Position numbers and translations under genes: made by a program. The notes under the pieces were generated by a model that saw nothing but the letters and a program-made list of their open reading frames with translations, did no database searches and was not told where the DNA came from. DNA of 43,746 nt from Escherichia phage NicoleGrasset_Bas72. Positions 5,112-39,237 of this stretch are shown here, one piece after another. Position 1 is the stretch's first letter, and the number at the start of each line of letters is the position of its first letter. The stretch lies in the sequence record PQ850621.1; one strand, 5' to 3'.

Positions 5112-5138
5112 TTTTCACCTCCTGTTTAAGTTAACTGA

Positions 5139-5167
5139 ATAGTACCCTATTATATTGGGGTGTGCAA
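5139..5167 (-). promoter_or_regulatory. promoter, TTGCAC-N17-TACTAT family
   Basis: On minus strand: TTGCAC, 17-nt spacer accccaatataataggg, TACTAT; drives 4908-5111. Confidence 0.55.
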
Positions 5168-11158: not shown

Positions 11159-12327
11159 ATATGGCTACAACTCCTTTTAAGGGCGCGAATACCGCGCAAT
11201 TCTATGTGGCGGAAACTACCCCTGGCGTAACACCGACTAACCCGGTATGGTCGCCGTTGCGTAACACGGGCGGCGTTCCCGCTGTAACCCGCGATGCACT
11301 GACTTCCAACGAACTGGACGGCAGCCGTGAAACTACATCCATCCGAACCGGTAACAAGCAGGTTAGCGGGGAGTATGCCATCGAACTTAGCTCTCGTAGC
11401 CAGGATGATTTCCTTGCGGGAGCGATGACTTCTACGTGGCAAGCTGGGGTAGAGATTACTGGCGCCGAAATTACGGTCGCCCCAGCAGGTAAAACATTCA
11501 CCCGCGCTGCCGGTAGCTTCATTACTGACGGTGTAGAAGTTGGCGACCTTATTGCGTTCACCGACTTAACCGGCGACAACGCAAAACCGTTTATCGTGAC
11601 CGCGGTTTCCGCTCTGGTAGTTACGGGCGCAGGTATTCAGCACACGCTGACAGCAGAGACAGTAACCACTGACGCAAAAACTGGCGACAAGCTGGAAACC
11701 GGTAACGCGTGTAAGACGTTCTCCATCCTGACGTGGTTCAAGGGCCAGTGTGGTAACCCGGACGCGTACATGCTGACCAAAGGTGTGGAAATCTCTGGCT
11801 TTACCGTAGAGCAGGCGGTTAACGCCATGGTCACCGGCAGCTTCCCGTTCATCGGCCTGAGTCAGGAGATTCTTACCGCGCCGCCGTCTGGCTCTGATTT
11901 CTCTCAGGTTACGTTCACCGATGAGCCGTTCTCGTCGGTAGATGTGTCGGTGTTCGATGGCTCCACGCCGTTGCGTTGCGATACTCTCACCATCACCAAC
12001 GACAACGGAGCTTCCGCGCAGTTCGAACTCGGTAACAGTAGCGTGGCGTTCGTCGAACGTGGACGCGCAGCTAACACATTCTCTATCTCTGGCAAGCTGT
12101 ACGACATGGCGATGATTCAGAAGTTTATCAACGAGCAGCAGGTAGAGATTAACTCTATTCTGGCAGGGGTAAACGGGGCTATGTCTTTCAGTTTGAAACG
12201 CGCAGAGCTTACGGCGGTTACACCTGAGATTGGTGGGCCTGAGTCAATCACTCAGTCCATTGAAGGCCAGGCTACCGGCAATCAGTACCAGTCGTCTATC
12301 GTAATTCAACGTATCACCTACGCATAA
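11155..12327 (+). CDS. putative major tail protein
   Basis: 390 aa ORF upstream of chaperone/tape-measure genes; followed by strong terminator at 12329-12356. Confidence 0.45.
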   Translation: MNMATTPFKGANTAQFYVAETTPGVTPTNPVWSPLRNTGGVPAVTRDALTSNELDGSRETTSIRTGNKQVSGEYAIELSSRSQDDFLAGAMTSTWQAGVEITGAEITVAPAGKTFTRAAGSFITDGVEVGDLIAFTDLTGDNAKPFIVTAVSALVVTGAGIQHTLTAETVTTDAKTGDKLETGNACKTFSILTWFKGQCGNPDAYMLTKGVEISGFTVEQAVNAMVTGSFPFIGLSQEILTAPPSGSDFSQVTFTDEPFSSVDVSVFDGSTPLRCDTLTITNDNGASAQFELGNSSVAFVERGRAANTFSISGKLYDMAMIQKFINEQQVEINSILAGVNGAMSFSLKRAELTAVTPEIGGPESITQSIEGQATGNQYQSSIVIQRITYA

Positions 12328-12328
12328 A

Positions 12329-12356
12329 ACTAAGGCCCCTTTCGGGGCCTTTTTCT
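12329..12356. terminator. bidirectional rho-independent terminator
   Basis: AGGCCCC tttc GGGGCCT then TTTTT; convergent genes on both sides. Confidence 0.75.
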
Positions 12357-12586
12357 CACTCATCAATATTACTTCGATACTCCCGTAACTTCTCCAGACT
12401 TTCAATTGCTTCTGCTAAGTCGGTTCCGGTGTCCTTATGCCCGCGAAGACCCATGCACAATAACTTCTTCAATGCGTGCTGTAGTGCGGGGTCACGGATG
12501 TCGAAGGCACGGAGAACATCGTAAACGTCTACGGTCATAGTGCTGCCGTGAGTGTTTGTCATTGTTCGGTTGTATTTTGAAGTCAT
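12356..12586 (-). CDS. hypothetical protein (76 aa)
   Basis: Last gene of minus-strand cassette; start overlaps stop of 12583-13713. Confidence 0.45.
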   Translation of the reverse strand: MTSKYNRTMTNTHGSTMTVDVYDVLRAFDIRDPALQHALKKLLCMGLRGHKDTGTDLAEAIESLEKLREYRSNIDE

Positions 12587-14105: not shown

Positions 14106-14133
14106 AATTATACCCTCAGTAAGTTACTGGTGA

Positions 14134-14162
14134 ATAGTACCCTATTATATTGGGGCGCGCAA
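14134..14162 (-). promoter_or_regulatory. promoter, TTGCGC-N17-TACTAT family
   Basis: On minus strand: TTGCGC, spacer gccccaatataataggg, TACTAT; drives cassette 13779-14105 onward. Confidence 0.55.
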
Positions 14163-22204: not shown

Positions 22205-24136
22205 ATGTCAAGCGGATGCGGTGACGTTTTAAGCCTGGCGGATTTACAGACCGCCAAGAAGCACCAGATTTTTGAAGCCGAGGTTATCACAGGTAAATCC
22301 GGCGGAGTATCTACGGGTGCTGATATCGATTACGCGACAAATCAGGTTACAGGGCAGACTCAGAAGACGCTCCCGGCCGTGTTGCGTGACGCCGGGTTCA
22401 GACCTGCGCCATTCACATTCGAAACAGGTGGGACTTTGGGCGTTAACGACGCTGACCTGGCGGTGTTGTGGCCAGGGCCATCAGGCGACGGCAACTATTA
22501 TGCATGGAAAGGTGCCCTGCCAAAAACCATCCCGGCATCTTCAACCCCGGCGTCTACGGGCGGAGTAGGCCAGACCGCATGGGTTGCCGTTAGTGAAGCT
22601 GCATTGCGCCGTGATTTGGCCCTAAGCACTGGCGCAGGGCTAGTTGGTACGTCTTCGGGTCGCACAGTGCAAGGCGAGGTTGACCATTTCAAAATAGGGT
22701 ATATGACACCCGATGATTTCGGCGCGGTGGGTGATGGTGCCACCGACGACACCACGCCTTTGCAACAGGCTATTGACTATTGTTCAAGCAACGGTATCGC
22801 GTTAAGAATCCCCGCAAAATCTTATGTTTGGAATGGCGGTATTATAACTTCACCCATAACAATAATCGGTGACAGACGTCCAGATTACAATTTTAGCTCC
22901 AATTCTATGTCTAACGGGTCTGTCATAATTGGCAATTTAAGATTTTCCGCAAGCCAGGTGATTATTAAGTCACTTGGTGTGCGTAGGCCTACAGGCTCCC
23001 CCGGAGATTGTCTGGTGTTATCGACCGATAACTATGCTGGTGGGTCTTGTATTGTTCAAGATGTAGTTGCCGCGGGCCTTTCCGGTTCGGACACGTACCA
23101 CAGCGTTCTTGTTGAAGGCTACGATTCCGCGCATGTATCTCAAATAACTGGCGGTTATAATCTTTTTGGCCTCGCGATTAAGTCAAGAAACGTTGTTGCC
23201 AGAGGCGTAATAACCGTAAGCTGTGATACTGGCGTTATCATTAAATCTGATAGTGAGTTCAGCACGGCAAAAAATGTGGTGCTGGACGGGCACATTAATG
23301 TCGGTAATGGTGTTTCTAGTCAAGGTGTTTGGATTTACAGCACAACCGCACAACTTGAGCGTATTACCTGCGCAAACTTACAAAGCATCGATTCCGCTAT
23401 ACATATGCGGATTAAGTCCGAAAACGTAGCTAATGACGTGCAAATTGTTGGGGCAAATTATTCAGGATCTACTTATGCGGATGTGCTCGTCGAAGGCACT
23501 TCGGCTGGCACATTGTACAATGTTAGTTTAGATAGTATAACAGCAGTAGATAGCCAGAAATTTATGGCTGCAGGTTTCTGTGAACAACTGATGGTAACAG
23601 GATTCTATGGGTCCCTGAAACCTGGCGCTCCCGCCGATGCTGCGTTTGAGGTTAGCGCCGCCGTAGGGCTTTTTAGCGGGTCAAATATCCAACTAGTCCG
23701 TCAATACGGCAGTGACCTAATGACAATGAATCTCGGTAACAGTTATCTTAATAATAGATTATCATCTGTTAAGGCGAAAGTAATAGGAGACGGCAAACCT
23801 AGACCGGGGTATAAAGAACAGAATCTTAGCGGCGCTGCGGCTTCAATGATTGTCGGCGACAGTTTGGGTCCCTCTGGGGTTGTGTCTGTCACCGCGTTAT
23901 CCACCGGCAGTTCATTCAGCAGTATTTCTATTAATGACGACTATGGTCAGCCGGTTAAGCCAGGTTTTCTTCTAATAATCCGAAACGCATCCACTATCCC
24001 GTTCGTTATGAACCATAATCCAGGGTCTGGTGGAATCGCAAATAACAGGGCGGTGGGTAAGACCATTGCGGGCGGAGACACTATAATGTACGTTTTTGAC
24101 GGGGCGAATTGGCGTCAGACTCCATCAATAACATAA
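22205..24136 (+). CDS. tailspike with right-handed beta-helix (pectate-lyase-like) domain; candidate depolymerase
   Basis: 643 aa; motif FGAVGDGATDDTTPLQQAIDYCSSNG typical of pectate lyase superfamily beta-helix; Gly/Thr-rich N-terminal anchor region; last structural gene before terminator. Confidence 0.65.
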   Translation: MSSGCGDVLSLADLQTAKKHQIFEAEVITGKSGGVSTGADIDYATNQVTGQTQKTLPAVLRDAGFRPAPFTFETGGTLGVNDADLAVLWPGPSGDGNYYAWKGALPKTIPASSTPASTGGVGQTAWVAVSEAALRRDLALSTGAGLVGTSSGRTVQGEVDHFKIGYMTPDDFGAVGDGATDDTTPLQQAIDYCSSNGIALRIPAKSYVWNGGIITSPITIIGDRRPDYNFSSNSMSNGSVIIGNLRFSASQVIIKSLGVRRPTGSPGDCLVLSTDNYAGGSCIVQDVVAAGLSGSDTYHSVLVEGYDSAHVSQITGGYNLFGLAIKSRNVVARGVITVSCDTGVIIKSDSEFSTAKNVVLDGHINVGNGVSSQGVWIYSTTAQLERITCANLQSIDSAIHMRIKSENVANDVQIVGANYSGSTYADVLVEGTSAGTLYNVSLDSITAVDSQKFMAAGFCEQLMVTGFYGSLKPGAPADAAFEVSAAVGLFSGSNIQLVRQYGSDLMTMNLGNSYLNNRLSSVKAKVIGDGKPRPGYKEQNLSGAAASMIVGDSLGPSGVVSVTALSTGSSFSSISINDDYGQPVKPGFLLIIRNASTIPFVMNHNPGSGGIANNRAVGKTIAGGDTIMYVFDGANWRQTPSIT

Positions 24137-24137
24137 A

Positions 24138-24166
24138 ACTAAGGCCCCGTTTGGGGCCTTTTCTCT
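24138..24166. terminator. bidirectional rho-independent terminator at structural/replication module junction
   Basis: AGGCCCC gttt GGGGCCT then TTTTCT; near-identical to terminator at 12329. Confidence 0.75.
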
Positions 24167-24302
24167 ACTCTTCCGATAACTTCTCCAGCACAAACGCCAG
24201 TTGCGCATTAGCGGCATCTCTCTGCTGACGTAGTCGTAGAACCTCTTCTTCGAGTTCCTTGATACGTTTTTGCAATGCTGGAATCGGGGCTATGATGTTC
24301 AT
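24165..24302 (-). CDS. small coiled-coil peptide (45 aa), putative
   Basis: ATGA overlap with upstream gene stop; sequence MNIIAPIPALQKRIKELEEEVLRLRQQRDAANAQLAFVLEKLSEE; not in ORF track (short). Confidence 0.35.
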   Translation of the reverse strand: MNIIAPIPALQKRIKELEEEVLRLRQQRDAANAQLAFVLEKLSEE

Positions 24303-24484
24303 TTCTCACCTTCGCTTTTCTTGAAGCTGCGCTTTATGTCCGGCAGCGTGTAACATCGTGACTTTTCATATTTACCGTTCGAGCTTACTAAAACAAAGCT
24401 GTTGCCGTCTTTTGATATGTACTCGATGGTGAAAGTATTGAATGAGCGTATGCTGTATATTTCATCGCCAACATTAAGTTTCAT
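24299..24484 (-). CDS. hypothetical protein (61 aa)
   Basis: Overlaps helicase stop; co-oriented with replication operon. Confidence 0.45.
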   Translation of the reverse strand: MKLNVGDEIYSIRSFNTFTIEYISKDGNSFVLVSSNGKYEKSRCYTLPDIKRSFKKSEGEK

Positions 24485-25905
24485 TTCTTACCTCGTCTCT
24501 TCATGTAATTAAGCAACTCTTCCTGTACCGATTTTTTCTCGTCCGTACGCGCGGCAACAACCTCGTCCAGCGTGTCTTTAGCGACGATATGATAGAGGAA
24601 CACCGGGCGCTCGTGTCCCGCCTGTTTCTGGCGGACCGGGCCTATGCGCTCAACAACCTGTAAATAGTGCTCAAGGTTCCACCCTTGCGAAATAAACGCC
24701 AGATGATGTCCGCCGTCCTGTAAATTCAAACCATGACCAGCTGACGCAGGATGCACGCATAAGATCTCAATTTCACCACGGTTCCACGCTTCCATCTGCT
24801 TATTACCCTTAACTCCTTTGGCAAACGCCTGTGCCTGCGGGAATCGCTTAAGGATGCGCTCCAGTTCGTGCTTGAACTGATAAGCCACCAGTAACGGCGC
24901 ACCTTGTAGCTCCTCAACAATTGACTCGAGCGCATCCAGTTTCGTGTCGTGCACTTTCTCCCAGTCTTTGGTTGCTTCTCCGTCGTCACCCGTCACATAC
25001 ACAGCACCGGAAGCAATCTGCAAACACTTAGACGTCTTCGCTGCCGCGTTAGCCGCTTCAACTTCCCCGCTCTCCAGTTCCGCGAATAACTTTTCCTCCA
25101 TATCGATGTACGCCTGACGCGCTTTCTTCGGCAGGTCGATTTCAACAGGTACGATAACCGGCGCTTCGCATCCGAACCACTCAGCGGCGTCAATCGTGAG
25201 ACTGATGTCCTTCATCTTCTGGTGGATTTCAGTATCCGCACCCGGGCGGGCGTGGTATTCGCGCGCCATAGCAGATTTGCCTTTCTGCACCGAGTTAAAC
25301 CAGCGGTCGGTGAATGCCGTGTACGAAGAACCGAGGCGCTCGCCCGCGTCGATAAACCAGTTCTGTCCCCACAAGTCCTTGAGGCCGTTAGGCGATGGTG
25401 TACCTGTCAGGTTGATAAAACGCTTAACCTTTCCGAACGCCACTCTACTAAGCGCCTTCGCCCGCTTGCTGCCGCCTGAACGGCTGCGGAATGACTTCAG
25501 TTTCGTGCTTTCATCGGCAACGATAACGGTAAAAGGCCAGTCGTCTTTGCCGTAGTAGTCAATCAACCACTCTATTACCTCATAGTTCGTGCACACCACG
25601 TTAGCGTCCGACTCCAGCGCCGCGATGCGGCGCTTCTCTGAACCGGTCGCGTCTACGACACGCAGACATGGGAAATTCCACTTAGTTTGTTCCGCCGGCC
25701 ATGTGCCTGATGCAACGCGCAACGGGGCGAGGATTAACACGCGGTCCTCTTCTGTAAGCTGCCCGTTGCGGAACAGTCGGTTTAATGTCCACAGTACGCT
25801 GCCAGTCTTCCCGGCGCCCATGCTCGCCCAAATATTACAGCGATGGTGCCGCAACATGAACGAAGTCATTAGCTTCTGGTATTCGCGCCTTTGAAACTTA
25901 CTCAT
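24481..25905 (-). CDS. SNF2/DEAD-like helicase
   Basis: Walker A MGAGKTGS, DExx box VIVADESTKLK, helicase C-terminal region. Confidence 0.7.
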   Translation of the reverse strand: MSKFQRREYQKLMTSFMLRHHRCNIWASMGAGKTGSVLWTLNRLFRNGQLTEEDRVLILAPLRVASGTWPAEQTKWNFPCLRVVDATGSEKRRIAALESDANVVCTNYEVIEWLIDYYGKDDWPFTVIVADESTKLKSFRSRSGGSKRAKALSRVAFGKVKRFINLTGTPSPNGLKDLWGQNWFIDAGERLGSSYTAFTDRWFNSVQKGKSAMAREYHARPGADTEIHQKMKDISLTIDAAEWFGCEAPVIVPVEIDLPKKARQAYIDMEEKLFAELESGEVEAANAAAKTSKCLQIASGAVYVTGDDGEATKDWEKVHDTKLDALESIVEELQGAPLLVAYQFKHELERILKRFPQAQAFAKGVKGNKQMEAWNRGEIEILCVHPASAGHGLNLQDGGHHLAFISQGWNLEHYLQVVERIGPVRQKQAGHERPVFLYHIVAKDTLDEVVAARTDEKKSVQEELLNYMKRRGKK

Positions 25906-26910: not shown

Positions 26911-27198
26911 TTAACTATAATAGCCCGCTATTAGGTCGTCAACCTGTTTAAACGAACCAACGACAAAAACATTTGCACCACGTTTACGCATCCGCTCGTG
27001 CTCTCGTAACTGGTGCGGGTCCGGCTTCGTGTTTTCGTCTTTCTTAACCTCGACGAACCAGATGATGCCACCAGGGAGAATTACCAGCAGGTCGGGGGCG
27101 CCGGAGCGCCCCTCATAAGACAGCTTACGAACGAGGCCACCAATGGCCTCGAATCGCTCTTTTGCGTATTTCTGCACGCGCCCCTCAGGCGTACTCAT
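26911..27198 (-). CDS. VRR-NUC domain nuclease (PD-(D/E)xK)
   Basis: 95 aa; GAPDLLVI...VEVKK pattern matches the D...E-x-K core of VRR-NUC; GAGGGG SD. Confidence 0.6.
   Translation of the reverse strand: MSTPEGRVQKYAKERFEAIGGLVRKLSYEGRSGAPDLLVILPGGIIWFVEVKKDENTKPDPHQLREHERMRKRGANVFVVGSFKQVDDLIAGYYS
26914..26942 (-). promoter_or_regulatory. sigma70-like promoter TTGACG-N17-TATAGT
   Basis: On minus strand; within the 3' end of the VRR-NUC gene; upstream of 26689-26880 and the methyltransferase. Confidence 0.5.
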
Positions 27199-28173: not shown

Positions 28174-30354
28174 CTACTTGGCGTATCTGTACATTTCGCT
28201 ACCTTCTGCTACAAGAGGGAACCCCTCCGCCCATTCTGGTAATTCGCACATCAATCGCTCAAGCTCTGCGACATTGTATTCCGGCGTATCTGGAGTTTCG
28301 CAGATAATCTCATCGTGGACATGAAGTACAATTGGATAACCGTTTGCTTCTACGTTCAGCAGCGCGTTGGCCAGCAAATCACGGCACAACGCCTGAGTGC
28401 AGTTTTCCACCAGTTTACCAGAGTAGGTGTACTGGAAGCCCCACTGCCGGGTTAACTGGTTTTCGCCCTGGTACTTGATGCGCACGTTAGTAGACACCTT
28501 TCCATCTTCGTCTGTCTCTTTCGACACACTTAATCCGACGCCCGGGTATGACATAACGCGACCCGACGGCAACGTCATGCGCAACCACCAGCCCGCGACT
28601 TTGTCGCCGTTGTTGTCTGTCTCTATGTTACGCGAAAACTTAACGCCTCGCGGTCCTGCGGTGAACTCTTTACCTGGATTGCGGATAGCGGCCATAGCTG
28701 CGTCTTCAATATCTCGCCAGAAAGCTACTGTTTCAGGGTGTGACTCTCGCCACATACGCTTGATAGCGTCACAGGTACGCCACACTTTCTTATCAAGAAT
28801 ATACGATGGTCGGTCATCCTTCTCCCCGGGTCGCGGCGGTCGCTTGGCTTCCTGAATACGTGCCCATTCATAGCCGCGTGCAGTAGCCGCCCAGATGTGG
28901 TCCGGGAAAGTACCGTCCATTGTTTTTGACATATCAACAAGGTCAAGTCCGAGGTTCTTAGCAAACTGAACGAAAGCGCCAACACCACCAGCGTAGCCGA
29001 GGCCAAGCTCGCAGGCTTTACCAATCTGGCGCAAGTCTTTGCGTTCCTTCTTAATGTAATCCGGCTCCATGCCGAACATCTTACCCGCGGTTACACAGTA
29101 AATGTCCAGCCCGGCGCGGAACGTATCTAGCGCGGTTTCTTCACCCGCCAGCCACGCAAGACCGCGGCCTTCGACGTTAGAGTAATCGGCGACGACAAAC
29201 TTATGCCCAGCTTCCGGTATAATGCAGCTACGAACGGTAGATGCCGTCAGCTTGGCTACGTCAAATCGGCGGTGCGCCCGGCCCTTAAGTAACGCTGAAA
29301 TGCCTTTATCCAGTTCATCATCGTGATAGTACCCACGCGCCAGGTTCTGTGGCTGGAAGCCTTTACCCGCGAACCGTAACGTACGCTTTGCCCCACCGTA
29401 CTGGATACAACCGCGGCGTCGGTCGTCCGACGAGCGGCCTAACAGCAGCGGGTTATATTTCGTGGACGCTGTTGACGCGGCCCCGAGGCGCATTTCGATA
29501 ATCATCCGGGCGTCGTCCGGTAAATCATCATCTGCCAACAGGTCGTTAAGCGTCGACTTCTGTGCATTGTGTATGCGGTGCGCGGGCGCAAGTTCACGCA
29601 GAATCGGAAGGAAGTCTTTACCGGTAAGCGAGCCGCCGTATTTACGTTGAGCTTCTTCCTGTAACTGTGCCTTGTGCTTCTCTACGGCTTCAATCGCGGC
29701 TTCCGCCAGTGCGACGTCAACCTTAAATCCGCGGTCGTTGATTAACTGGTCAAGTTCCAGTACACGGTCTTCGAACTCGGAGTTACCCCAACGCGGCAGC
29801 TTATGGAACACTTCACGCATCGCTGTGATGTCACTCACGGCATACTTGATAAACAGCGCCCACTCATCCGGGTGCGTTTCCGCGGTATAGCGGCGGATTT
29901 TGTAGTTCTTTGGCGTAGGTTTAGAAAAACGCTGAATCAGCGCCTTGCCGCGTTTGTCTTTCGCGTTGTCTGCAGACACGCCCAGCACTTCGCACAGCGC
30001 ATCGAGTGACCCCGGCAGCGCGTGACGAAACGCCCAAATCATCGTATCAATGGTGTTGCTTACGGGAATATCAAAGCCCCAGCAGTGTTTCATGATGAGC
30101 CTGTCGAACATTGAGCCGTTGTGCCACACCATCTTAATACGACTGTTCGGCTTAACCAGGCGGCGCAGTGCGCGGTGCAAATCACCCGGCATGTCGCTGC
30201 CGTCGGTGCAATCCCATACCCGCACAGGCTCGTCGTCAAAAGCATATGTGCAGATAAGCACTTCGGTAGTCGGGTGTTCGGCGTAAGCGTAGGAGCCGAC
30301 TTTCTTTAAATCGGCTTCGGAGAATGTTTCAAAGTCCAGGTATAAGTAGCTCAT
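28174..30354 (-). CDS. family A DNA polymerase with 3'-5' exonuclease domain
   Basis: Exo I-like YLDFETFS near N-terminus and motif C-like LHVHDEIICE near C-terminus; start at internal ATG 30354 with AAGGA SD. Confidence 0.75.
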   Translation of the reverse strand: MSYLYLDFETFSEADLKKVGSYAYAEHPTTEVLICTYAFDDEPVRVWDCTDGSDMPGDLHRALRRLVKPNSRIKMVWHNGSMFDRLIMKHCWGFDIPVSNTIDTMIWAFRHALPGSLDALCEVLGVSADNAKDKRGKALIQRFSKPTPKNYKIRRYTAETHPDEWALFIKYAVSDITAMREVFHKLPRWGNSEFEDRVLELDQLINDRGFKVDVALAEAAIEAVEKHKAQLQEEAQRKYGGSLTGKDFLPILRELAPAHRIHNAQKSTLNDLLADDDLPDDARMIIEMRLGAASTASTKYNPLLLGRSSDDRRRGCIQYGGAKRTLRFAGKGFQPQNLARGYYHDDELDKGISALLKGRAHRRFDVAKLTASTVRSCIIPEAGHKFVVADYSNVEGRGLAWLAGEETALDTFRAGLDIYCVTAGKMFGMEPDYIKKERKDLRQIGKACELGLGYAGGVGAFVQFAKNLGLDLVDMSKTMDGTFPDHIWAATARGYEWARIQEAKRPPRPGEKDDRPSYILDKKVWRTCDAIKRMWRESHPETVAFWRDIEDAAMAAIRNPGKEFTAGPRGVKFSRNIETDNNGDKVAGWWLRMTLPSGRVMSYPGVGLSVSKETDEDGKVSTNVRIKYQGENQLTRQWGFQYTYSGKLVENCTQALCRDLLANALLNVEANGYPIVLHVHDEIICETPDTPEYNVAELERLMCELPEWAEGFPLVAEGSEMYRYAK

Positions 30355-30565: not shown

Positions 30566-31192
30566 TTAACGGCGGCGACGTTCGCGGCGCGGTGCTTCAT
30601 CTTCTTCGTCGTCTTCCAGGTCGTCGACGCTTGCAGCAACTTTAGAGCCTCCAAACGCTTTACCTTCGCCAACGTACTTAATTGCCAGCAGGTTAACGCC
30701 GAGTACTTTATATTTCTGGCTGAACCAGATTTCAACGCTTACGTTAGCGACGCAGCCACTGTACACCTGTTCACCTTCAATCTGTTCGCCTTCTACATTG
30801 AAGTCTGGTTCTACCTGAGTTTCGCCTTTTTTAGATGTTACAATCAGAGGTTGTTTCTGCGCTTTCGCTTTGAAGTAGAAACCTTCCGGGAAGTCTTCAA
30901 ACGGATTGTCGCGCTCGGCGATGTCCTTAATCGCGCATTTATCCATGTGCTTGCCTTCGCCGTAGTTTGACTTCATCCATTTCTCTGCGGCGGCTGCACC
31001 CAACGCTTCTTCAACCACAGCGTAAACGGTGTCGTAGAGCGCGTCGATTTGAGCATGGTCAGACGGCAGGATGATAGTTGCGCTGTACTGGCCTTTAGTG
31101 ATTGAGCCGTCGTCGTTTTCACGGTCTTTTTCGCGTTCGAATACGTTAACCCATGCAGTGTTTACTTTACGCAGATTCAGTTTAATGCCCAT
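30566..31192 (-). CDS. DUF2815-like putative ssDNA-binding protein
   Basis: 208 aa with acidic DD/EE-rich then basic RRERRRR C-terminus; sits between nuclease and polymerase as in DUF2800/DUF2815/PolA modules; followed by terminator. Confidence 0.5.
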   Translation of the reverse strand: MGIKLNLRKVNTAWVNVFEREKDRENDDGSITKGQYSATIILPSDHAQIDALYDTVYAVVEEALGAAAAEKWMKSNYGEGKHMDKCAIKDIAERDNPFEDFPEGFYFKAKAQKQPLIVTSKKGETQVEPDFNVEGEQIEGEQVYSGCVANVSVEIWFSQKYKVLGVNLLAIKYVGEGKAFGGSKVAASVDDLEDDEEDEAPRRERRRR

Positions 31193-31245
31193 CTTGATTT
31201 CTCGCTTTTAAGTTTACTCCGGGAGCTGCCCGGCCAGTGATTAGA

Positions 31246-31274
31246 ACTATAATAGCTAACTATTCAGGTGTCAA
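31246..31274 (-). promoter_or_regulatory. sigma70-like promoter TTGACA-N17-TATAGT
   Basis: On minus strand; partly within the 3' end of 31260-31463; upstream of DUF2815-like gene. Confidence 0.55.
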
Positions 31275-31463
31275 ATAAAATTTCGCAATACGGACTATGT
31301 TCTCGAAATCATTCATATCAACGGGTTCGAATTCATCCTCCACATGGTTGTATCGCACCATCGTGCCGTTCAGGAACGTAAACGATTCCGAATGGATATA
31401 ACCGCCCCAGCGCCATATCATCACAAAATCTTTATCTGTGGGCATTTCATTTACTTGAATCAT
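31260..31463 (-). CDS. hypothetical protein (67 aa)
   Basis: ATG overlaps stop of upstream nuclease gene (ATGA); SD AGAGGAGGA lies within the upstream coding sequence. Confidence 0.45.
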   Translation of the reverse strand: MIQVNEMPTDKDFVMIWRWGGYIHSESFTFLNGTMVRYNHVEDEFEPVDMNDFENIVRIAKFYLTPE

Positions 31464-32740
31464 TCCAAATCCTCCTCTGTTACCTGATTCCACTCAGGAC
31501 GTTTGTCGTCTGCCGTTGCGACACATGGTGCGCCTGGCTTACGGGTAATGAAGTCTTTCAGTTCTTCTTCCGGTATGACTTTAACAGCTTCGGTAGGTGA
31601 CATGAGCACTTCTTTAGTCAGCTTGTCGCCGTAGAGTTCTGTTACTTTCTCCGCGTCTTTCCATGCACGATTACCCGGGCGGCCTTCAACCAACTTGTAA
31701 CCAGGAACTTTCTTACCTGAATGCAACGCGGCCGCCATAGCTTTCTCAACCTTGTCGATGTGCTGGCGCAACAGCGGCAACTTCTCATACTCAGCTACGA
31801 GTTGCTCCGGCGTCAGTTCCAGCACAAAGTCGTCTTCCAGTTCTTCCGCCAGTACAGAATTAACCGTCTTTGTACGCGCAGCGCATTGTTCAGAGAACCG
31901 GCACCACTGACAACCATCTACCGATGGCTTGAAGTCCGACGCTTTCAGGTTCTTCTTGCCACGGAAATACGCATCAAGCGCTAACAGCGCGCGTTTCTGT
32001 GCGAACTTAGCGAACAGTTCCAGTCCTTCAACCGAGATGTCCCACTCTGTCGCGCCCCCAGCGTAAGGCTGGAAGATGACCAGACGAACGGTTGTTATGT
32101 TATAACGTCTCTTGAGTCGACGATAAACACCGAGAGCGTAAAGCATAAGCTGCTTGTTTTCTTTCGCTTCGACGCGATGCCGTCCTGTTTTAAGGTCGCC
32201 GATAATGAGCATCGCGGAGTTACTTTCACCTGTAAAGCCTTCTATAACCGCCACTAAGTCGGCTGTCCCGAATGTCTCTAAATCATCCTCCTTACCTTCT
32301 TCACTCTCAGCAGGTACTTTGTAGCCCGGATGCAATACCTCAGTAAGATTGACACGCATTTCCAGCTTGGCGTAAGTCGCTACATCGATAATCGCTTTGC
32401 AGTAGTCGGTGTACTTGCGAACCTGTTCAATCATGTCAGCCGTAATCAGTACCGCGCCTTTCATAGGGCTGATTAACGCCTTAATCTGGCCTTTTCCTTC
32501 GTCCAGTACATAAGCGCCGACTTCACGTTCTAATGGCAACGCAGTGCCTTTGATGTACTGGTTAAGGTGTATCTCGGCTATGGTGTGCATTGCCGTGCCT
32601 AATATCGCAGCTTTACCGGACGTGTCAGGAATATCCTTTTCACAGGCCAGTGATGCGGCGCAGGTTAACCACTTTTTAGCACCTGACGGTGACAGTAAGG
32701 CGTGTACGTCGTTATTGCCGCCGCGTTCTTTTAGAATCAT
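31460..32740 (-). CDS. DUF2800-like PD-(D/E)xK (Cas4-like) nuclease
   Basis: N-terminal HALLSPSGAKKWLTCAAS signature; C-terminal Cys cluster VDGCQWCRFSEQCAAR consistent with Fe-S Cas4-like nucleases; ends with VTEEDLE. Confidence 0.6.
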   Translation of the reverse strand: MILKERGGNNDVHALLSPSGAKKWLTCAASLACEKDIPDTSGKAAILGTAMHTIAEIHLNQYIKGTALPLEREVGAYVLDEGKGQIKALISPMKGAVLITADMIEQVRKYTDYCKAIIDVATYAKLEMRVNLTEVLHPGYKVPAESEEGKEDDLETFGTADLVAVIEGFTGESNSAMLIIGDLKTGRHRVEAKENKQLMLYALGVYRRLKRRYNITTVRLVIFQPYAGGATEWDISVEGLELFAKFAQKRALLALDAYFRGKKNLKASDFKPSVDGCQWCRFSEQCAARTKTVNSVLAEELEDDFVLELTPEQLVAEYEKLPLLRQHIDKVEKAMAAALHSGKKVPGYKLVEGRPGNRAWKDAEKVTELYGDKLTKEVLMSPTEAVKVIPEEELKDFITRKPGAPCVATADDKRPEWNQVTEEDLE

Positions 32741-33099
32741 CGTAAACTCTCCAAATACAAGTTTAATGCCTGTAGCTGTTCTTCTGTGGGGATGAAAGAA
32801 TCATCACGATGTAAGTCGCTTAACTGTTGCAGCATTCCTGCGAACTTACGTCTTGCGTCAACAGTGGCCATGTGATGCTTTTCGCTTTTGTATATTAATG
32901 TTTTCGGGTAATCCTCAAGTCTTCCAGACGATTTATTCACGCGGAGTGCTCGAGCTTCATGCGCAATGTGGATGTACTTTTTGCCGTTTTGTAGCACAGT
33001 AGCTACGCCGCTGTTCTTTCTGCGGTCACCGACGGTGTAAACCTTGTCACCACTACGCAGATTAAGCCACCATTTATCCGTCATACCCGGTTCTCCCAC
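32737..33099 (-). CDS. hypothetical protein (120 aa)
   Basis: Co-oriented, overlapping start/stop in early-left operon. Confidence 0.45.
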   Translation of the reverse strand: MGEPGMTDKWWLNLRSGDKVYTVGDRRKNSGVATVLQNGKKYIHIAHEARALRVNKSSGRLEDYPKTLIYKSEKHHMATVDARRKFAGMLQQLSDLHRDDSFIPTEEQLQALNLYLESLR

Positions 33100-33353
33100 T
33101 GGTCAATTAAATGTCGTGTCTTGTGGTCACAATGCATCGCCCAGCTATACATCGACTCGAAGACATAAAAGTCACTTTTAACGAATGTCGTGCGCTTAAT
33201 CTGCGACAGGTGACGGCCTATATCTTTCGGCTTCGGTACTTTGCCGAGGTAGGCCATCTCTTCCATCTGGTGCGCGCCGGACGGCGCACGCAACAGCCAC
33301 AACGCCTCTGTGTTATCCCGTCGGTCAATACCTCGGTAGAGTTGGTAAATCAT
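33081..33353 (-). CDS. hypothetical protein (90 aa)
   Basis: Co-oriented ORF in early-left operon. Confidence 0.45.
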   Translation of the reverse strand: MIYQLYRGIDRRDNTEALWLLRAPSGAHQMEEMAYLGKVPKPKDIGRHLSQIKRTTFVKSDFYVFESMYSWAMHCDHKTRHLIDQWENRV

Positions 33354-33396
33354 ATTACGACCCTCTGTTAAAGCGGCCCGGAGGCCGCCAGATAAA

Positions 33397-33897
33397 TTAT
33401 TCTTCTTCGAAATACTTGTTCTTAATCGCCGTCAGGCGTTTCAGGTATTCAGCCAGGTCTTCGTCTTTAATCGCGGCAATCTTCATTTTCTTACCGGTGA
33501 ACTCCTCCAGCAGTTCATCGGAATCGTCGCACGCAGCATCGCTAGGACCTTCGTTAATTGCATCGTCGATAGCCTGAATCTGGTCACGAAGAGACTGGTA
33601 ATCGACCTCTTCTTTCTCTTCTTCTGGTTCTGGAGTCGGCTCCTCTACTTTAGCTTTACGCGGCTTGCGTTTCGGCTTCTCTTCTTCTGCTGGTTTAGCG
33701 TCAACGATGTCTTCACCTTCAACAGGGATTTCTTTTGTTGCTTCTTTTTCGCACTCAGCTACCGCTTCTTTGGTATACACTACCGTCTCTACTTCTAACG
33801 GCGCTGCAACTTGTGCTGACTGTTTCGCACTGTTCGCAGCAATCAGTTCATGTGCAACTACGAAACGTTCCAGTAATTTTAAGAATTGTTCTAACAT
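33397..33897 (-). CDS. highly acidic protein, first gene of early-left operon
   Basis: GAGGAGAG SD; E/D-rich (EPTPEPEEEKEEVDYQ, DDSDELLEEF); directly downstream of strong promoter 33929-33957. Confidence 0.55.
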   Translation of the reverse strand: MLEQFLKLLERFVVAHELIAANSAKQSAQVAAPLEVETVVYTKEAVAECEKEATKEIPVEGEDIVDAKPAEEEKPKRKPRKAKVEEPTPEPEEEKEEVDYQSLRDQIQAIDDAINEGPSDAACDDSDELLEEFTGKKMKIAAIKDEDLAEYLKRLTAIKNKYFEEE

Positions 33898-33928
33898 TTG
33901 TTTCTCTCCTCTCGTTTGGTATGGGCTA

Positions 33929-33957
33929 ACTATAATAGCGAACTATTCACATGTCAA
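33929..33957 (-). promoter_or_regulatory. sigma70-like promoter TTGACA-N17-TATAGT
   Basis: On minus strand; upstream of acidic-protein gene 33397-33897. Confidence 0.6.
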
Positions 33958-33961
33958 TGGG

Positions 33962-33990
33962 CTTTTCTAAAATAATTAATATGGTACTAT
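33962..33990 (+). promoter_or_regulatory. weak promoter candidate for HTH regulator gene
   Basis: TACTAT -10 at 33985-33990 with AT-rich upstream region; -35 poor (CTTTTC). Confidence 0.3.
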
Positions 33991-34021
33991 TCACATATCA
34001 ACTGACTAAGGAGTAATTGAC

Positions 34022-34237
34022 ATGCGACCATCTGAACTAGGCATCCGTGTAGAACAACGCCGCAAAGAACTCGGCATCTCCCAGCGCCGTTTGGCGGCCC
34101 TGACCGGCGTTTCCCAGGGCGCGATTAACCAACTGGCACTTGGAGTAACTCAGGACGTCCGCCCGGCAACGCTGTTCAAACTGGCGGAAGTTCTGGAAGT
34201 AGACGCCAAGTGGCTGGCGTTAGGTGAAGGGGCTTAA
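34022..34237 (+). CDS. XRE-family HTH transcriptional regulator (Cro/CI-like)
   Basis: 71 aa; classic HTH LGISQRRLAALTGVSQGAINQL; AAGGAG SD; own terminator 34227-34252. Confidence 0.7.
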   Translation: MRPSELGIRVEQRRKELGISQRRLAALTGVSQGAINQLALGVTQDVRPATLFKLAEVLEVDAKWLALGEGA

Positions 34238-34252
34238 AGCCCCTTTCTTTTT
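34227..34252 (+). terminator. rho-independent terminator after HTH regulator gene
   Basis: GGGGC ttaaa GCCCC then TTTCTTTTT. Confidence 0.6.
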
Positions 34253-34254
34253 AC

Positions 34255-36489
34255 CTATTCCAAATCCTCCTCTGTCACCACCAGCATCTCATTTGGTTCG
34301 TATAGTGTCTTCGGCCTTAATCTATCCCCTATTCTTTCGGGTATACGATATGTTCTCGGTACTACTTCGCCGTTAGCATCGCAACCAAGCATTAGTTCTC
34401 CATCTTTCAACATTTTATCAAGATGGGTGTTAGTCACAGAGAAGTCACCGGAACGAGCCACTATCTGCTGCTGAGTAAAACCGCGACCTGTGTCATCTGA
34501 CTGTTGCAGGTCTTCCAGTGCCGAAAGTATTGACTCCTTCCTTACTTCATCCCTGCCGCGTTTAACTTCTTCCTTTACTTTTTGCTTACCTTCTTTCGTC
34601 AACCCTTCTTCCCGCTCTTTCTCCTCGTCAGTTTTGAACGGCTCGAAACCCCACGGCATCAACACAAGCGCCTTGTGTGGTTCAGGAAGGTCCAGGTTTA
34701 CGATTGTGCCGTATTCTTCTGTGCCCCCCAGGAACTCAACCGCACGGTACTCTTTCGGCGGCGGAGCTTCGCGGAACTGCACAGACTCCAGCACCATGCC
34801 AACCGTTTTCTGTTGAGGACCGTGCTTAAATTTCGAGTGGTATACGTTTATTTGACGGTCGGTTGCACGTTCGATTGTCAGTTCCACGTCAACACCCGCA
34901 TACAGCGCCCCACTGCCGCGTGCTTTCTTTCCACCCTTCGGCGTATGGTGGACAACGCCTACTGCGGCTTTAGTTGCATCGCGTACTTCTTTCAGAATGG
35001 CGATAACTTTACCCATGCCGATTGCTGTTGATGAACTGTTCTCGTCGAACTTATCAATCGTCAGTGCCAGGGTCTGGTTAAGGGTGTCGAACGCAACCAT
35101 GCCAATTGGCTCGTCGCCAGCAGTTTCGCGCATTAACTTAATCAGGCTTTTAAGTTTGCCGACTTCGCCCATATCGATGACGTGTACATAATCTTTACCT
35201 TCCCCGCCATATTTAGCCGCTAGTGCATCAATACGGGTGCGTGTAGCTGCGCCACCCTCACCATCAATATAGAAATGGTGGCAACGCTGGGTATCCGCCC
35301 CCGCAAACCTGTACCCGGCGGCGCTGAGGTACATCATCCCCAGCGTATAGAACGATTTGTACGTGCCAGATTCCCCGACGATATCCCAGATACAATCCGA
35401 CGGCATGTACCCCTCAACGACGAAATCAGCCTTTACCGGCTCCGGTAACTCGTCCCCCTCTGAGTCCTCCTCTGAGTCCTCGTCGTCTTCCAGGTCGTCG
35501 AGGCTGCAAGTTACTGGGTCCTCGTTCTCTGTGCGGTGTAGTTCTTCAATCTCTTCTTCCGGTAAATCAGGCAGAGCCGCACGAATGCTGTTAATGCTGA
35601 TAGGTTGCTTGTCTACGTTAAGCTCGTCTGGCAGGCCGCACATACGCAGGGCCAAATGCTGTCGGCGGTTAAGCTCGGTGCAAGCGCCGTTGTTTGTATG
35701 CTGGCAGACAAAGCGCACTTCTTTACCGTCGAGCATTATGCTGGTGGAGCCCTTGCCTGTATGCAGATGTTCGTTAGGGCATGGCACTTCGTACCCGCGC
35801 CCGGAAGATAAAGCGTCAAGGCCAAGCTCGGCTTCGCAGAAGTGTGCTATATCCGCGTTAAGCCCATGCTCATCAGCGGCAAGTGTTTTAGCCTCACGCT
35901 TACGCAACCCCATCTCTTCGGCTTTCTTGATGTACCGCTCGGCACGGATAACACGCCCTTCTGTAACCGTTATCTTCGACTCTTTGTGCGGCAGGTAGAT
36001 AAGGCGGTTGCCATCTTCCGTGCAGTGGTCGCGCAACGCTTCGTCTATTTCTAACTCTGCACAAATAGCACGTTGCACCATCCACGCGTCGTTAGAGTTA
36101 AACGGCGTGCGAGCTGGAACCAGAACGCGGAAAGCGTAATCTCCGTTTTTACACACATGCTGATGCGATGCCGTTGTATGCAGAATATTGAAGAACGGTG
36201 CGTTCTTGAATTTGCGGGTAAGGTCGCGGTACTGAGTACGGTTGAGATGGTCAAAATCGAACTTAACCACACTGTCTTCCAGAATAGCGTTCTTACGGCG
36301 ACCGCCAACAGGCGCAATAGCTTTCTGTTTAATCTTGGCCGCGTCGTACTCTTCCTTAGTCCATGACGGGTCCACGGATAAACGCTTCGATGTATCGCAG
36401 ACATACTCCACAAACTGCTCGAGCGGCATCTCACGCGCTACAGGGTTTTTATCGAATGTGTTACGCAGCGTTGCAAAAACAATATTCAT
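34255..36489 (-). CDS. primase-helicase (N-terminal primase-like region, C-terminal RecA-like ATPase)
   Basis: Walker A GESGTYKS in C-terminal half; 744 aa; position in replication module; ends with VTEEDLE. Confidence 0.6.
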   Translation of the reverse strand: MNIVFATLRNTFDKNPVAREMPLEQFVEYVCDTSKRLSVDPSWTKEEYDAAKIKQKAIAPVGGRRKNAILEDSVVKFDFDHLNRTQYRDLTRKFKNAPFFNILHTTASHQHVCKNGDYAFRVLVPARTPFNSNDAWMVQRAICAELEIDEALRDHCTEDGNRLIYLPHKESKITVTEGRVIRAERYIKKAEEMGLRKREAKTLAADEHGLNADIAHFCEAELGLDALSSGRGYEVPCPNEHLHTGKGSTSIMLDGKEVRFVCQHTNNGACTELNRRQHLALRMCGLPDELNVDKQPISINSIRAALPDLPEEEIEELHRTENEDPVTCSLDDLEDDEDSEEDSEGDELPEPVKADFVVEGYMPSDCIWDIVGESGTYKSFYTLGMMYLSAAGYRFAGADTQRCHHFYIDGEGGAATRTRIDALAAKYGGEGKDYVHVIDMGEVGKLKSLIKLMRETAGDEPIGMVAFDTLNQTLALTIDKFDENSSSTAIGMGKVIAILKEVRDATKAAVGVVHHTPKGGKKARGSGALYAGVDVELTIERATDRQINVYHSKFKHGPQQKTVGMVLESVQFREAPPPKEYRAVEFLGGTEEYGTIVNLDLPEPHKALVLMPWGFEPFKTDEEKEREEGLTKEGKQKVKEEVKRGRDEVRKESILSALEDLQQSDDTGRGFTQQQIVARSGDFSVTNTHLDKMLKDGELMLGCDANGEVVPRTYRIPERIGDRLRPKTLYEPNEMLVVTEEDLE

Positions 36490-37574: not shown

Positions 37575-37603
37575 TTGCACACCCCAACATAATAGGATAC
37601 TAT
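37575..37603 (+). promoter_or_regulatory. promoter, TTGCAC-N17-TACTAT family
   Basis: TTGCAC, spacer accccaacataatagga, TACTAT; about 35 nt upstream of gene at 37638. Confidence 0.55.
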
Positions 37604-37637
37604 TCACTTATCGAAACGAGACAGAGGAGTGAGGGTT

Positions 37638-38777: not shown

Positions 38778-38808
38778 TCATTTACACAAACGAGAGGAGA
38801 GACAGAAT

Positions 38809-38958: not shown

Positions 38959-39220
38959 AAGCTACACCGTGACCGTTGATTTTGAGGGGCTGGAGTTGCC
39001 CCTCCCTAACAACTACAGGTATATAACTCGTGACCGTTTCGGGTTTATTCAGGGGTGGCGGAACAAACCTACAGACACTGAGTTCGGGATGTCTGGCGGC
39101 GAAGAGTTGCCGATCACTTTCGGGCATCAGAGTAGTCACGAAGAGCTTAAAACGGTGATTCGTAAGTATCGCCGCCGCGGTAACACGGGGCTTATAGCAA
39201 TAACAGGCGCTGTTGAATAA
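38948..39220 (+). CDS. hypothetical protein
   Basis: ATG at 38948 overlapping upstream gene end. Confidence 0.45.
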   Translation: MNFRSYTVTVDFEGLELPLPNNYRYITRDRFGFIQGWRNKPTDTEFGMSGGEELPITFGHQSSHEELKTVIRKYRRRGNTGLIAITGAVE

Positions 39221-39237
39221 ACGAGAGGAGAGACAGA

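Follow-up and report, generated by a model that had tools for sequence, protein, structure and literature searches.

A short acidic peptide common to the nuclease, primase-helicase and SSB of Escherichia phage NicoleGrasset_Bas72

The 43,746 nucleotides of Escherichia phage NicoleGrasset_Bas72 (sequence record PQ850621.1), referred to below as the window, were analyzed with respect to the C-terminal ends of the replication proteins. This 43.7-kb stretch is essentially the complete genome of a Kagunavirus-like coliphage (Guernseyvirinae). [quoted passage not shown] By analogy with phage T7, the VTEEDLE ends are probably copies of one short linear docking peptide of the replication machinery. 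The features concerned are listed in Table 1.

Copies of the motif and their conservation

Reading of both translations confirmed the claim, made earlier from the sequence alone, that the two proteins share their C-terminus: the nuclease gene ends ...NQVTEEDLE-TGA and the primase-helicase gene ...LVVTEEDLE-TAG. The stretch of 19 identical nucleotides (nt) that this sequence-only reading had reported was also found, as ACAGAGGAGGATTTGGAAT; the positions which it gave (31461-31479 and 34252-34270) were off by 1 and 5 nt, the exact common 19-mer lying at 31462-31480 in the nuclease gene and at 34257-34275 in the primase-helicase gene. The match grows to 23 nt if one mismatch is allowed. About 0.0035 exact 19-mer pairs are expected by chance in 43.7 kb (our own calculation), and only four distinct exact direct repeats of at least 19 nt were found in the whole window. 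A C-terminus of the form [ST][DE][DEG]DL.{0,3}$ was present in only 2 of the 521 six-frame stop-to-stop open reading frames (ORFs) of at least 40 amino acids, these two being the nuclease and the primase-helicase. Based on the repeat and ORF-end counts, a chance origin of the shared tail was rejected. No similarity was detected in the flanks of the 19-nt repeats (local score 21; shuffled sequences gave a mean of 8.8 and a maximum of 14). A larger duplication around the repeats was likewise rejected, because the flanks are dissimilar and the islands of identity in the window measure just 23 and 29 nt.

Two of the four copies, in the primase-helicase linker and in the SSB tail, had been missed by the sequence-only reading. 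The peptides holding the four copies are LVVTEEDLE, NQVTEEDLE, TCSLDDLEDDED and ASVDDLEDDEEDE. The second copy in the primase-helicase lies in the linker that joins its primase domain to its helicase domain, where the window reads VTCSLDDLEDDE and the all-group consensus is C-T-D-E-D-L-E-D-E-P. In an alignment of seven primase-helicases, extending down to 30% identity, linker residues C328, D332 and L333 were invariant, as were D742 and L743 of the C-terminal tail. The SSB tail begins SVDDLEDDEEDE, and an xDDL/DEDL motif follows directly on the OB fold of the SSB in all five groups that were compared (Table 2). Unlike the tail of the T7 protein, that of the window SSB continues to a basic end. 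The last part of the SSB (30566-30613) carries the conserved basic sequence APRRERRRR and has neither the acidic nor the aromatic end known from T7. In the L051-L072 groups and in eiAU-183 the SSB tail contains several acidic/basic repeats, and those of L051-L072 and L073 have PR(R/K)xRRRR-like ends.

At the DNA level the SSB and linker copies also form a pair. The segments 30603-30631 and 35477-35505 are the same at 27 of 29 nt, 22 of them in an exact run. This island encodes S-V/L-D-D-L-E-D-D-E, with codons unlike those of the two C-terminal copies.

Table 1. Positions of the replication genes and motif copies in the window
Feature	Position	Strand	Basis or remark
Family A DNA polymerase with 3'-5' exonuclease, no tail motif	28174..30354	-	Pfam PF00476, PF01612
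T7 gp2.5-type SSB / annealing protein (DUF2815, Enc34_ssDNA-bd), 208 aa	30566..31192	-	Pfam PF10991 E=2.2e-15
SSB copy S188-E193 (SVDDLE), start of C-terminal tail	30614..30631	-	followed by DDEEDE, basic end APRRERRRR
67-aa gene, ATG overlaps nuclease stop (ATGA)	31260..31463	-	homologous 204-nt coding sequence Bas74_0044 annotated in Bas74
DUF2800 / Cas4-AddB-type PD-(D/E)XK nuclease, 426 aa, C-terminus VTEEDLE	31460..32740	-	Pfam PF10926 E=8.6e-65, PF12705
Nuclease tail codons T421-E426 (TEEDLE); with T of stop (31462), copy 1 of 19-nt repeat	31463..31480	-	
GGAGG Shine-Dalgarno core within nuclease tail codons, 7 nt 5' of ATG (31461-31463)	31471..31475	-	sequence
Three small genes between primase-helicase and nuclease	33397-33897, 33081-33353, 32737-33099	-	ORFs
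Hairpin and T-run directly past primase-helicase stop	34226..34246	+	scores as terminator of convergent helix-turn-helix (HTH) gene
Primase-helicase, 744 aa, C-terminus VTEEDLE	34255..36489	-	Pfam PF13481 E=4.6e-17, AAA_25 helicase core residues 349-520
Primase-helicase tail codons T739-E744 (TEEDLE); with T of TAG stop (34257), copy 2	34258..34275	-	
Second primase-helicase copy S329-E334 (SLDDLE), linker between primase and helicase domains	35488..35505	-	seven-sequence alignment

A 6.1-kb query spanning the tail repeats matched 446 phage records in nucleotide comparison, the best match being Escherichia phage vB_Ec_DUEC01 (96.6% identity over 92% of the query). From IMG/VR 74 related loci were retrieved, and the ends of the nuclease and primase-helicase genes were read in each. 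Tails of the D/E-x-D-L type were present on both proteins in Kagunavirus, Jerseyvirus, two further IMG/VR groups and Eiauvirus, encoded by different codons, so that the proposed check on conservation in homologues came out in favour of the tail. The common C-terminal form across these five genus-level groups is x-D/E-x-D-L-x(0-3), and the primase-helicases carrying it are down to 30% identical. Besides the ends given in Table 2, the pairs of primase-helicase and nuclease ends include VTEEDLE with V[TS]EEDLE and TTEGDLE with VTEDDLEA. Throughout the Kagunavirus and Jerseyvirus loci the primase-helicase ends in xTE[EGD]DLE. In the three further groups (L051-L073) the primase-helicase is only 30-35% identical to that of the window and is encoded on the strand opposite to the nuclease gene.

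Table 2. Motif copies at the protein ends and past the SSB OB fold
Genome or group	Primase-helicase end	Nuclease end	SSB motif
Window	VTEEDLE	VTEEDLE	AASVDDLEDDEEDE
L051-L057	ASDEDLNS	SDEDLS	ANEDDLDDGGE (L051)
L058-L072 (Dhillonvirus-like)	ATDDDLKD	ATDEDLSNE	CSDEDLGDDDEDE (L058)
L073	ATDDDLAD	ATDEDLE	ATDDDLGDDDD
Edwardsiella phage eiAU-183	TNSDLED	KDDDLVD	ATDDDLSDDDD

The motif was retained where the last 150 amino acids of the primase-helicase are about 36% identical (locus L002, for example) and the helicase and C-terminal domain has been replaced as a whole. Six loci (L002, L005, L010, L014, L033 and L036) have a primase domain near-identical to that of the window and only about 36% identity over the last 150 amino acids, compared with window 34255-35500. 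The exchanged region reaches from the linker motif as far as the conserved YEPNEMLxVTEEDLE end, so that a motif copy flanks this swappable module on either side. The sequences returned by the profile search with the primase-helicase were nearly all from close relatives, and each of the four new ones has both motif copies. For the nuclease, 19 of 20 cluster representatives (one per 50% cluster) at 34-60% identity end in D-L-x(0-3), and remoter nucleases have acidic-hydrophobic ends of the DKRPA...DDF(E/D)D(L/V/I) type. Since the peptide is kept with other codons over such deep divergence, selection acts on the peptide, the DNA identity being secondary.

Common tails of other wording were found in more distant phages. 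Fourteen distant lineages with a DUF2800 nuclease were taken from an evenly spaced tblastn list, the choice being made by taxon while their tails were still unseen. In the Chi-like phage YSD1 the primase ends ...GEWDDEV, the nuclease ...GAWDDEDDDEV, the SSB ...EWEDEV and an SNF2 helicase ...GVWDDEE. Four proteins of Aeromonas phage LAh_7 have ends of the DD[DE]EI type (...GYWDDDEI, ...SDWDDDEI, ...EEYDDEEI and ...DGDDDEI), three of them with W or Y directly before the acidic run. The nuclease of Staphylococcus phage phi2958PVL has ...AEDDFDKL and its SSB ...AEDDFDEL..., and in Erwinia phage SNUABM08 the SSB (...DDDDAL), primase (...DDDDML) and helicase (...DEDDLL) are alike. Pairs of similar tails were also read in Bacillus phage Carmen17 (...SDFEDEEFDV and ...NDFEDEDFDI...), Rhodobacter phage RcWata (...MDDFDDLD and ...DDDFDELED...) and APSE-1 (NDFDDVT and EEFDDLS), and phages BS162P3 and RHph_X2_30 have common tails of their own.

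The similarity of tails within genomes was assessed by a permutation test with one genome per lineage (15 lineages), in which the best local BLOSUM62 scores of tail pairs from the same genome were summed and the sum was compared with that obtained under label permutations. Nuclease and SSB tails of the same genome were more similar than in the permutations (p=2e-5), and so were primase and SSB tails (p=6e-5 to 2e-4, 10 lineages) and nuclease and primase tails (p=0.015). The polymerase-SSB control gave p=0.83. An acidic tail on the polymerase was never found across the lineages examined; the polymerase of the window ends ...EMYRYAK, and this type of end is conserved.

Proposed docking and the candidate receptors

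The sequence-only reading had proposed a common docking motif as in the T7 and SSB systems. The conservation of the tail, the further copies and the within-genome co-variation all favour this proposal; docking itself and the identity of the receptor we infer. The motif copies would lie in flexible parts of the proteins, namely the C-termini of the nuclease and the primase-helicase, the interdomain linker of the latter and the beginning of the SSB's acidic tail. The three proteins would most likely use these copies to dock, one after another or in competition, at a common site of the replisome, much as T7 gp4 and gp2.5 attach to T7 DNA polymerase through their acidic tails. In T7 the gp4 tail binds basic patches of the polymerase (PMC5997990), and that of gp2.5 binds its front basic patch (PMC12339929). 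We regard the family A polymerase as the first candidate receptor, based on the T7 precedent and on its being the only large protein of the module without a tail; second comes the groove in which the SSB binds DNA.

The likeness to T7 is that the helicase-primase and the gp2.5-type SSB of one phage carry similar acidic peptides (...SNDTDF and ...DEDGDF in T7), that the polymerase has no tail and that the SSB is of the same structural class (PF10991, T7-type), DUF2815 proteins being SSBs of the T7 type whose acidic tails are disordered (PMC5686142). The tails analyzed here differ from those of T7 in ending D-L-E instead of the D-F of gp4 and gp2.5, although F or W occurs in the tails of some distant lineages. 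In addition, a Cas4-like nuclease carries the motif here while the exonuclease of T7, gp6, lacks such a tail, the primase-helicase has an extra internal copy, and the SSB motif is followed by more acidic residues and the conserved basic end (PRRERRRR).

The tip of the bacterial SSB (...DFDDDIPF in E. coli) is similarly a short linear motif, acidic and hydrophobic, on a disordered tail which organizes genome maintenance, and distant members of the nuclease family have tails of the DDFDD[VIL] type. In bacteria one SSB tail serves many receptors, while here many proteins bear the tail, which implies one receptor and a polarity reversed with respect to bacterial SSB. The phage motif is, moreover, internal in the SSB tail, which ends ...APRRERRRR without a terminal Pro-Phe. 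Shared acidic tails as connectors of the replisome are thus a principle known from T7 and bacterial SSB. What differs here is the D-L motif without a terminal aromatic residue, the Cas4-like nuclease as a bearer, the internal copy in the primase-helicase and the occurrence of lineage-specific dialects on up to four proteins of a genome. A prior description of the shared tail was not found in the literature searched, which is absence of evidence only.

Several observations weigh against docking of the tails onto a common site. In the AlphaFold2 (AF2) model of the nuclease the last six residues form a one-turn helix with a mean predicted local distance difference test (pLDDT) score of 84; given this score and the short helix, the tail may rest on the body of its own protein instead of being free. 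The window polymerase was compared with T7 gp5 in a low-identity MAFFT alignment, in which neither an insertion corresponding to the thioredoxin-binding domain nor a conserved basic cluster opposite the front basic patch K587-R591 of gp5 was seen. The tails end in L-E, without the aromatic tip residue of the T7 and E. coli SSB tails. The primases of BS162P3 and RcWata have no such tail, and in the same-genome comparison low ranks were obtained for the nucleases of Javan8, Stiles and APSE-1. The likeness of tails within a genome could also derive in part from shared composition or from DNA exchange between the tails.

One alternative, possible though hardly the likelier course, is that the SSB itself is the receptor. 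The tails of proteins that produce single-stranded DNA (ssDNA), i.e. the helicase-primase, the 5'-3' nuclease and, in some lineages, an SNF2 helicase, would then fill the groove of free SSB in the way the SSB's own tail does; the SSB would be passed to the nascent single strand, and the nuclease would load the annealing protein. When Enc34 ORF6, two further DUF2815 proteins and T7 gp2.5 were crystallized, the acidic C-terminus was seated in the concave beta-sheet groove of an adjacent molecule (PMC5686142), but such groove contacts may be packing artefacts. The tail bearers generate ssDNA and the polymerase has no tail; the nuclease-SSB likeness is the strongest of the statistics given above (p=2e-5), and the low-identity alignment revealed no T7-like basic patch on the polymerase. 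The nuclease and SSB genes are also near neighbours in the known duf2800-gp2.5-polA module (PMC8093625). On the other hand, the documented common receptor of both tails in T7 is the polymerase.

An extension of this alternative, which we put forward more tentatively still, is a lineage-specific, co-evolving 'tail code' of phages with the DUF2800-DUF2815-PolA module, in which every enzyme that creates ssDNA would share the tail peptide of the SSB, plug the ssDNA groove of free SSB with it and thereby have the SSB/annealing protein delivered where ssDNA emerges. If true, the code would make the SSB a hub with a polarity reversed with respect to bacteria, and differences between dialects would insulate the replisomes of co-infecting phages.

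It is unlikely that the tails instead act separately in cis, each folded against the protein that carries it, as a DNA mimic, an autoinhibitor or a structural element, with a likeness due to chemistry. The helical nuclease tail of the AF2 model would suit such a role, and in T7 gp2.5 and other SSBs the acidic tail binds to the protein's own DNA-binding surface (Marintcheva 2008, as cited in PMC5686142). Chemistry alone, however, does not explain either the lineage-specific dialects found on unrelated folds of one genome (WDDEV, WDDDEI, DDFDEL, TEEDLE) or the results of the permutation test. The tail and linker of the primase-helicase, furthermore, are low-confidence segments. The AF2 model of that protein, built from a shallow alignment, is poor (pLDDT 55) and only the relative confidence of its segments was used; a winged-helix-like domain at residues 650-718 reached a pLDDT of about 75-82, and the linker (323-361) and tail (719-744) were below 50, as expected for flexible segments.

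The gene neighbourhood of the duf2800-gp2.5-polA replication/recombination module of phages has been described (Steczkiewicz et al. 2021, PMC8093625), and the window has the same content and order, i.e. nuclease, small gene, SSB and polymerase; the searched passages of that paper make no mention of a tail motif common to the proteins of the module. The DUF2800-DUF2815-PolA module is very widespread, with 10,903 nuclease cluster representatives at E<=0.001, and was found in phages of Enterobacterales, Firmicutes, Bacteroides, Actinobacteria and alpha- and beta-proteobacteria. This replisome has barely been studied, and a common tail peptide provides a cheap handle on how it holds together. It would also give a reason for the presence of a recombination-type nuclease within a replication operon and is a possible determinant of specificity between related phages.

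Codon choice and the Shine-Dalgarno sequence

The sequence-only reading had also claimed that the nucleotides of the nuclease tail provide the Shine-Dalgarno sequence of the next gene, and this holds: GGAGG stands 7 nt before the ATG, stop and start overlap as ATGA, and the ORF is annotated in Bas74. At this end all the signs of translational coupling were found (stop/start overlap, Shine-Dalgarno sequence at 5-9 nt, conserved downstream ORF), as in known coupled junctions. Coupling accounts for the codons, however, and not for the residues, and at the primase-helicase end of the window the junction reads ATAG and no ORF starts there. A gene starting at the stop codon follows the nuclease here and the primase-helicase in many relatives: 16 of these have ATGA at the primase-helicase end, where unrelated small genes of 36-191 amino acids start. 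Where no gene follows the primase-helicase (the other relatives and the window), scattered synonymous changes were observed. In loci L003-L048 the positions downstream of the primase-helicase and nuclease stops are hypervariable insertion slots, with unrelated ORFs at the ATGA.

Among the related IMG/VR loci two forms of the nuclease end were distinguished. The first, GTA-ACA-GAG-GAG-GAT-TTR-GAA-TGA, is always overlapped by a downstream ATG, and the second, GTT-AGT-GAA-GAA-GAT-TTR-GAA-TAA, is followed by a promoter-like TTGAC and no overlapping gene. The GAGGAG codons with their GGAG core were present in 26/26 nuclease tails with an adjacent ATG versus 0/22 without (Fisher p=4e-14). As GAGGAG occurs exactly where the next gene starts at the stop codon, these codons serve as the Shine-Dalgarno sequence of that gene; and as the residues are kept in both forms, the codons follow the need for it. 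The use of the same codons for the six residues in both tails is accordingly explained by GAG-GAG-GAT-TTG-GAA doubling as Shine-Dalgarno sequence and spacer for a gene which starts at the stop.

The two tails were compared in register in the 37 relatives in which the nuclease and the primase-helicase both end in DLE. Between 5 and 19 nt are identical, with the full 19 nt in only 5 of the 37 genomes, and no covariation was seen between the leucine codons of the nuclease and primase-helicase tails (p=0.42). Hence the shared 19 nt are neither a conserved element nor a sign of ongoing gene conversion, and the latter was rejected because of the missing covariation. They are a local coincidence of one peptide, one Shine-Dalgarno requirement and similar codon choice.

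An origin at the DNA level, by which the repeat would be the footprint of recombination, gene conversion or duplication, or a junction of module exchange, and the peptide only its passenger, is accordingly very improbable. The improbability of an exact 19-mer by chance speaks for it, as do the second island of identity that joins the SSB and linker copies, the varied small genes that begin exactly at the ATGA past the primase-helicase tail in relatives, the exchange of helicase-domain alleles between linker motif and tail, and the phage's own nuclease and annealing protein. The retention of the peptide with different codons over deep divergence, the variable length of the identity, the independent leucine codons and the dissimilar flanks speak against it. 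The sequence-only reading had offered a recombination footprint as its second explanation; with 19 nt shared in so few relatives, leucine codons that vary independently and codon choice which tracks the downstream start, it finds no support as the main cause, although DNA exchange may contribute locally to the identity of the tails. That the Glu-Glu pair is just a by-product of the GAGGAGG needed by the next gene can be given hardly any credence even though GAGGAG and an adjacent ATG go together without exception at the nuclease end, for alleles without a next gene keep the residues (VSEEDLE) and shift the codons to GAAGAA, on which ground the pure Shine-Dalgarno explanation was rejected, the invariant D-L lies outside the Shine-Dalgarno sequence, and no start follows the linker or the SSB copy.

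The same nucleotides can thus hold both a peptide motif and a ribosome-binding site, and caution is needed before short identities at gene ends are called scars of recombination.

The replication gene block and other repeated elements

The gene order of the window equals that of the annotated relative Bas74 from the terminase onwards. The replication genes are all on the minus strand, in the order primase-helicase, three small genes, nuclease, 67-amino-acid gene, SSB and polymerase. The window also encodes an SF2 helicase (24481-25905). The nuclease scored 219.7 bits against PF10926 (cutoff 21). Its AF2 model (pLDDT 91) was matched by Foldseek to the nucleases of the Cas4-family ACE1, AdnAB, AddAB and Dna2, and cysteines C27, C277, C280 and C286 were invariant in 71 sequences. 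Homologues of the primase-helicase are annotated as replicative helicase-primase in relatives. The SSB scored 57.2 bits against PF10991 (cutoff 26) and is annotated as Gp2.5-like in relatives; its OB fold is followed by a long tail, which is acidic by composition.

A Pfam search with the 67-amino-acid protein gave no match. Of the small genes between primase-helicase and nuclease, the first encodes a very acidic protein of 166 amino acids (33397-33897) without a Pfam match, conserved at this location in relatives. The product of the third (120 amino acids, 32737-33099) has a borderline match to PF24203, a phage ProQ C-terminal-like domain (E=1.1e-5, 26.5 bits against a cutoff of 27), and only some relatives have such a ProQ-like protein. 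A gene for a 71-amino-acid HTH_3 protein of the Cro/CI type (34022-34237, plus strand; Pfam E=3.9e-13) is convergent to the primase-helicase gene within the minus-strand replication region, and its terminator has a T-run that coincides in part with the stop codon of the primase-helicase.

Other repeated elements were noted in the window. A conserved promoter-like 30-nt element, TTGACA-17 nt-TATAGT, occurs on the minus strand at 26913-26942, 31245-31274, 33928-33957 and 37585-37614, upstream of the SSB gene, the gene of the 166-amino-acid protein and other minus-strand units; two of the copies agree with the consensus at 11/12 positions. A related 32-nt pair on the plus strand (5136-5167 and 14131-14162) has the common core GAATAGT...CTATTATA. 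An exact direct repeat of 19 nt, AAACGAGAGGAGAGACAGA, at 38788-38806 and 39219-39237 resembles two ribosome-binding regions of small early genes. A 42-nt repeat with 83% identity (12323-12364 and 24132-24173) comprises a GC-rich hairpin, AAGGCCCC-loop-GGGGCCTT, and a T-run, and its two copies are probably terminators which close structural gene blocks.

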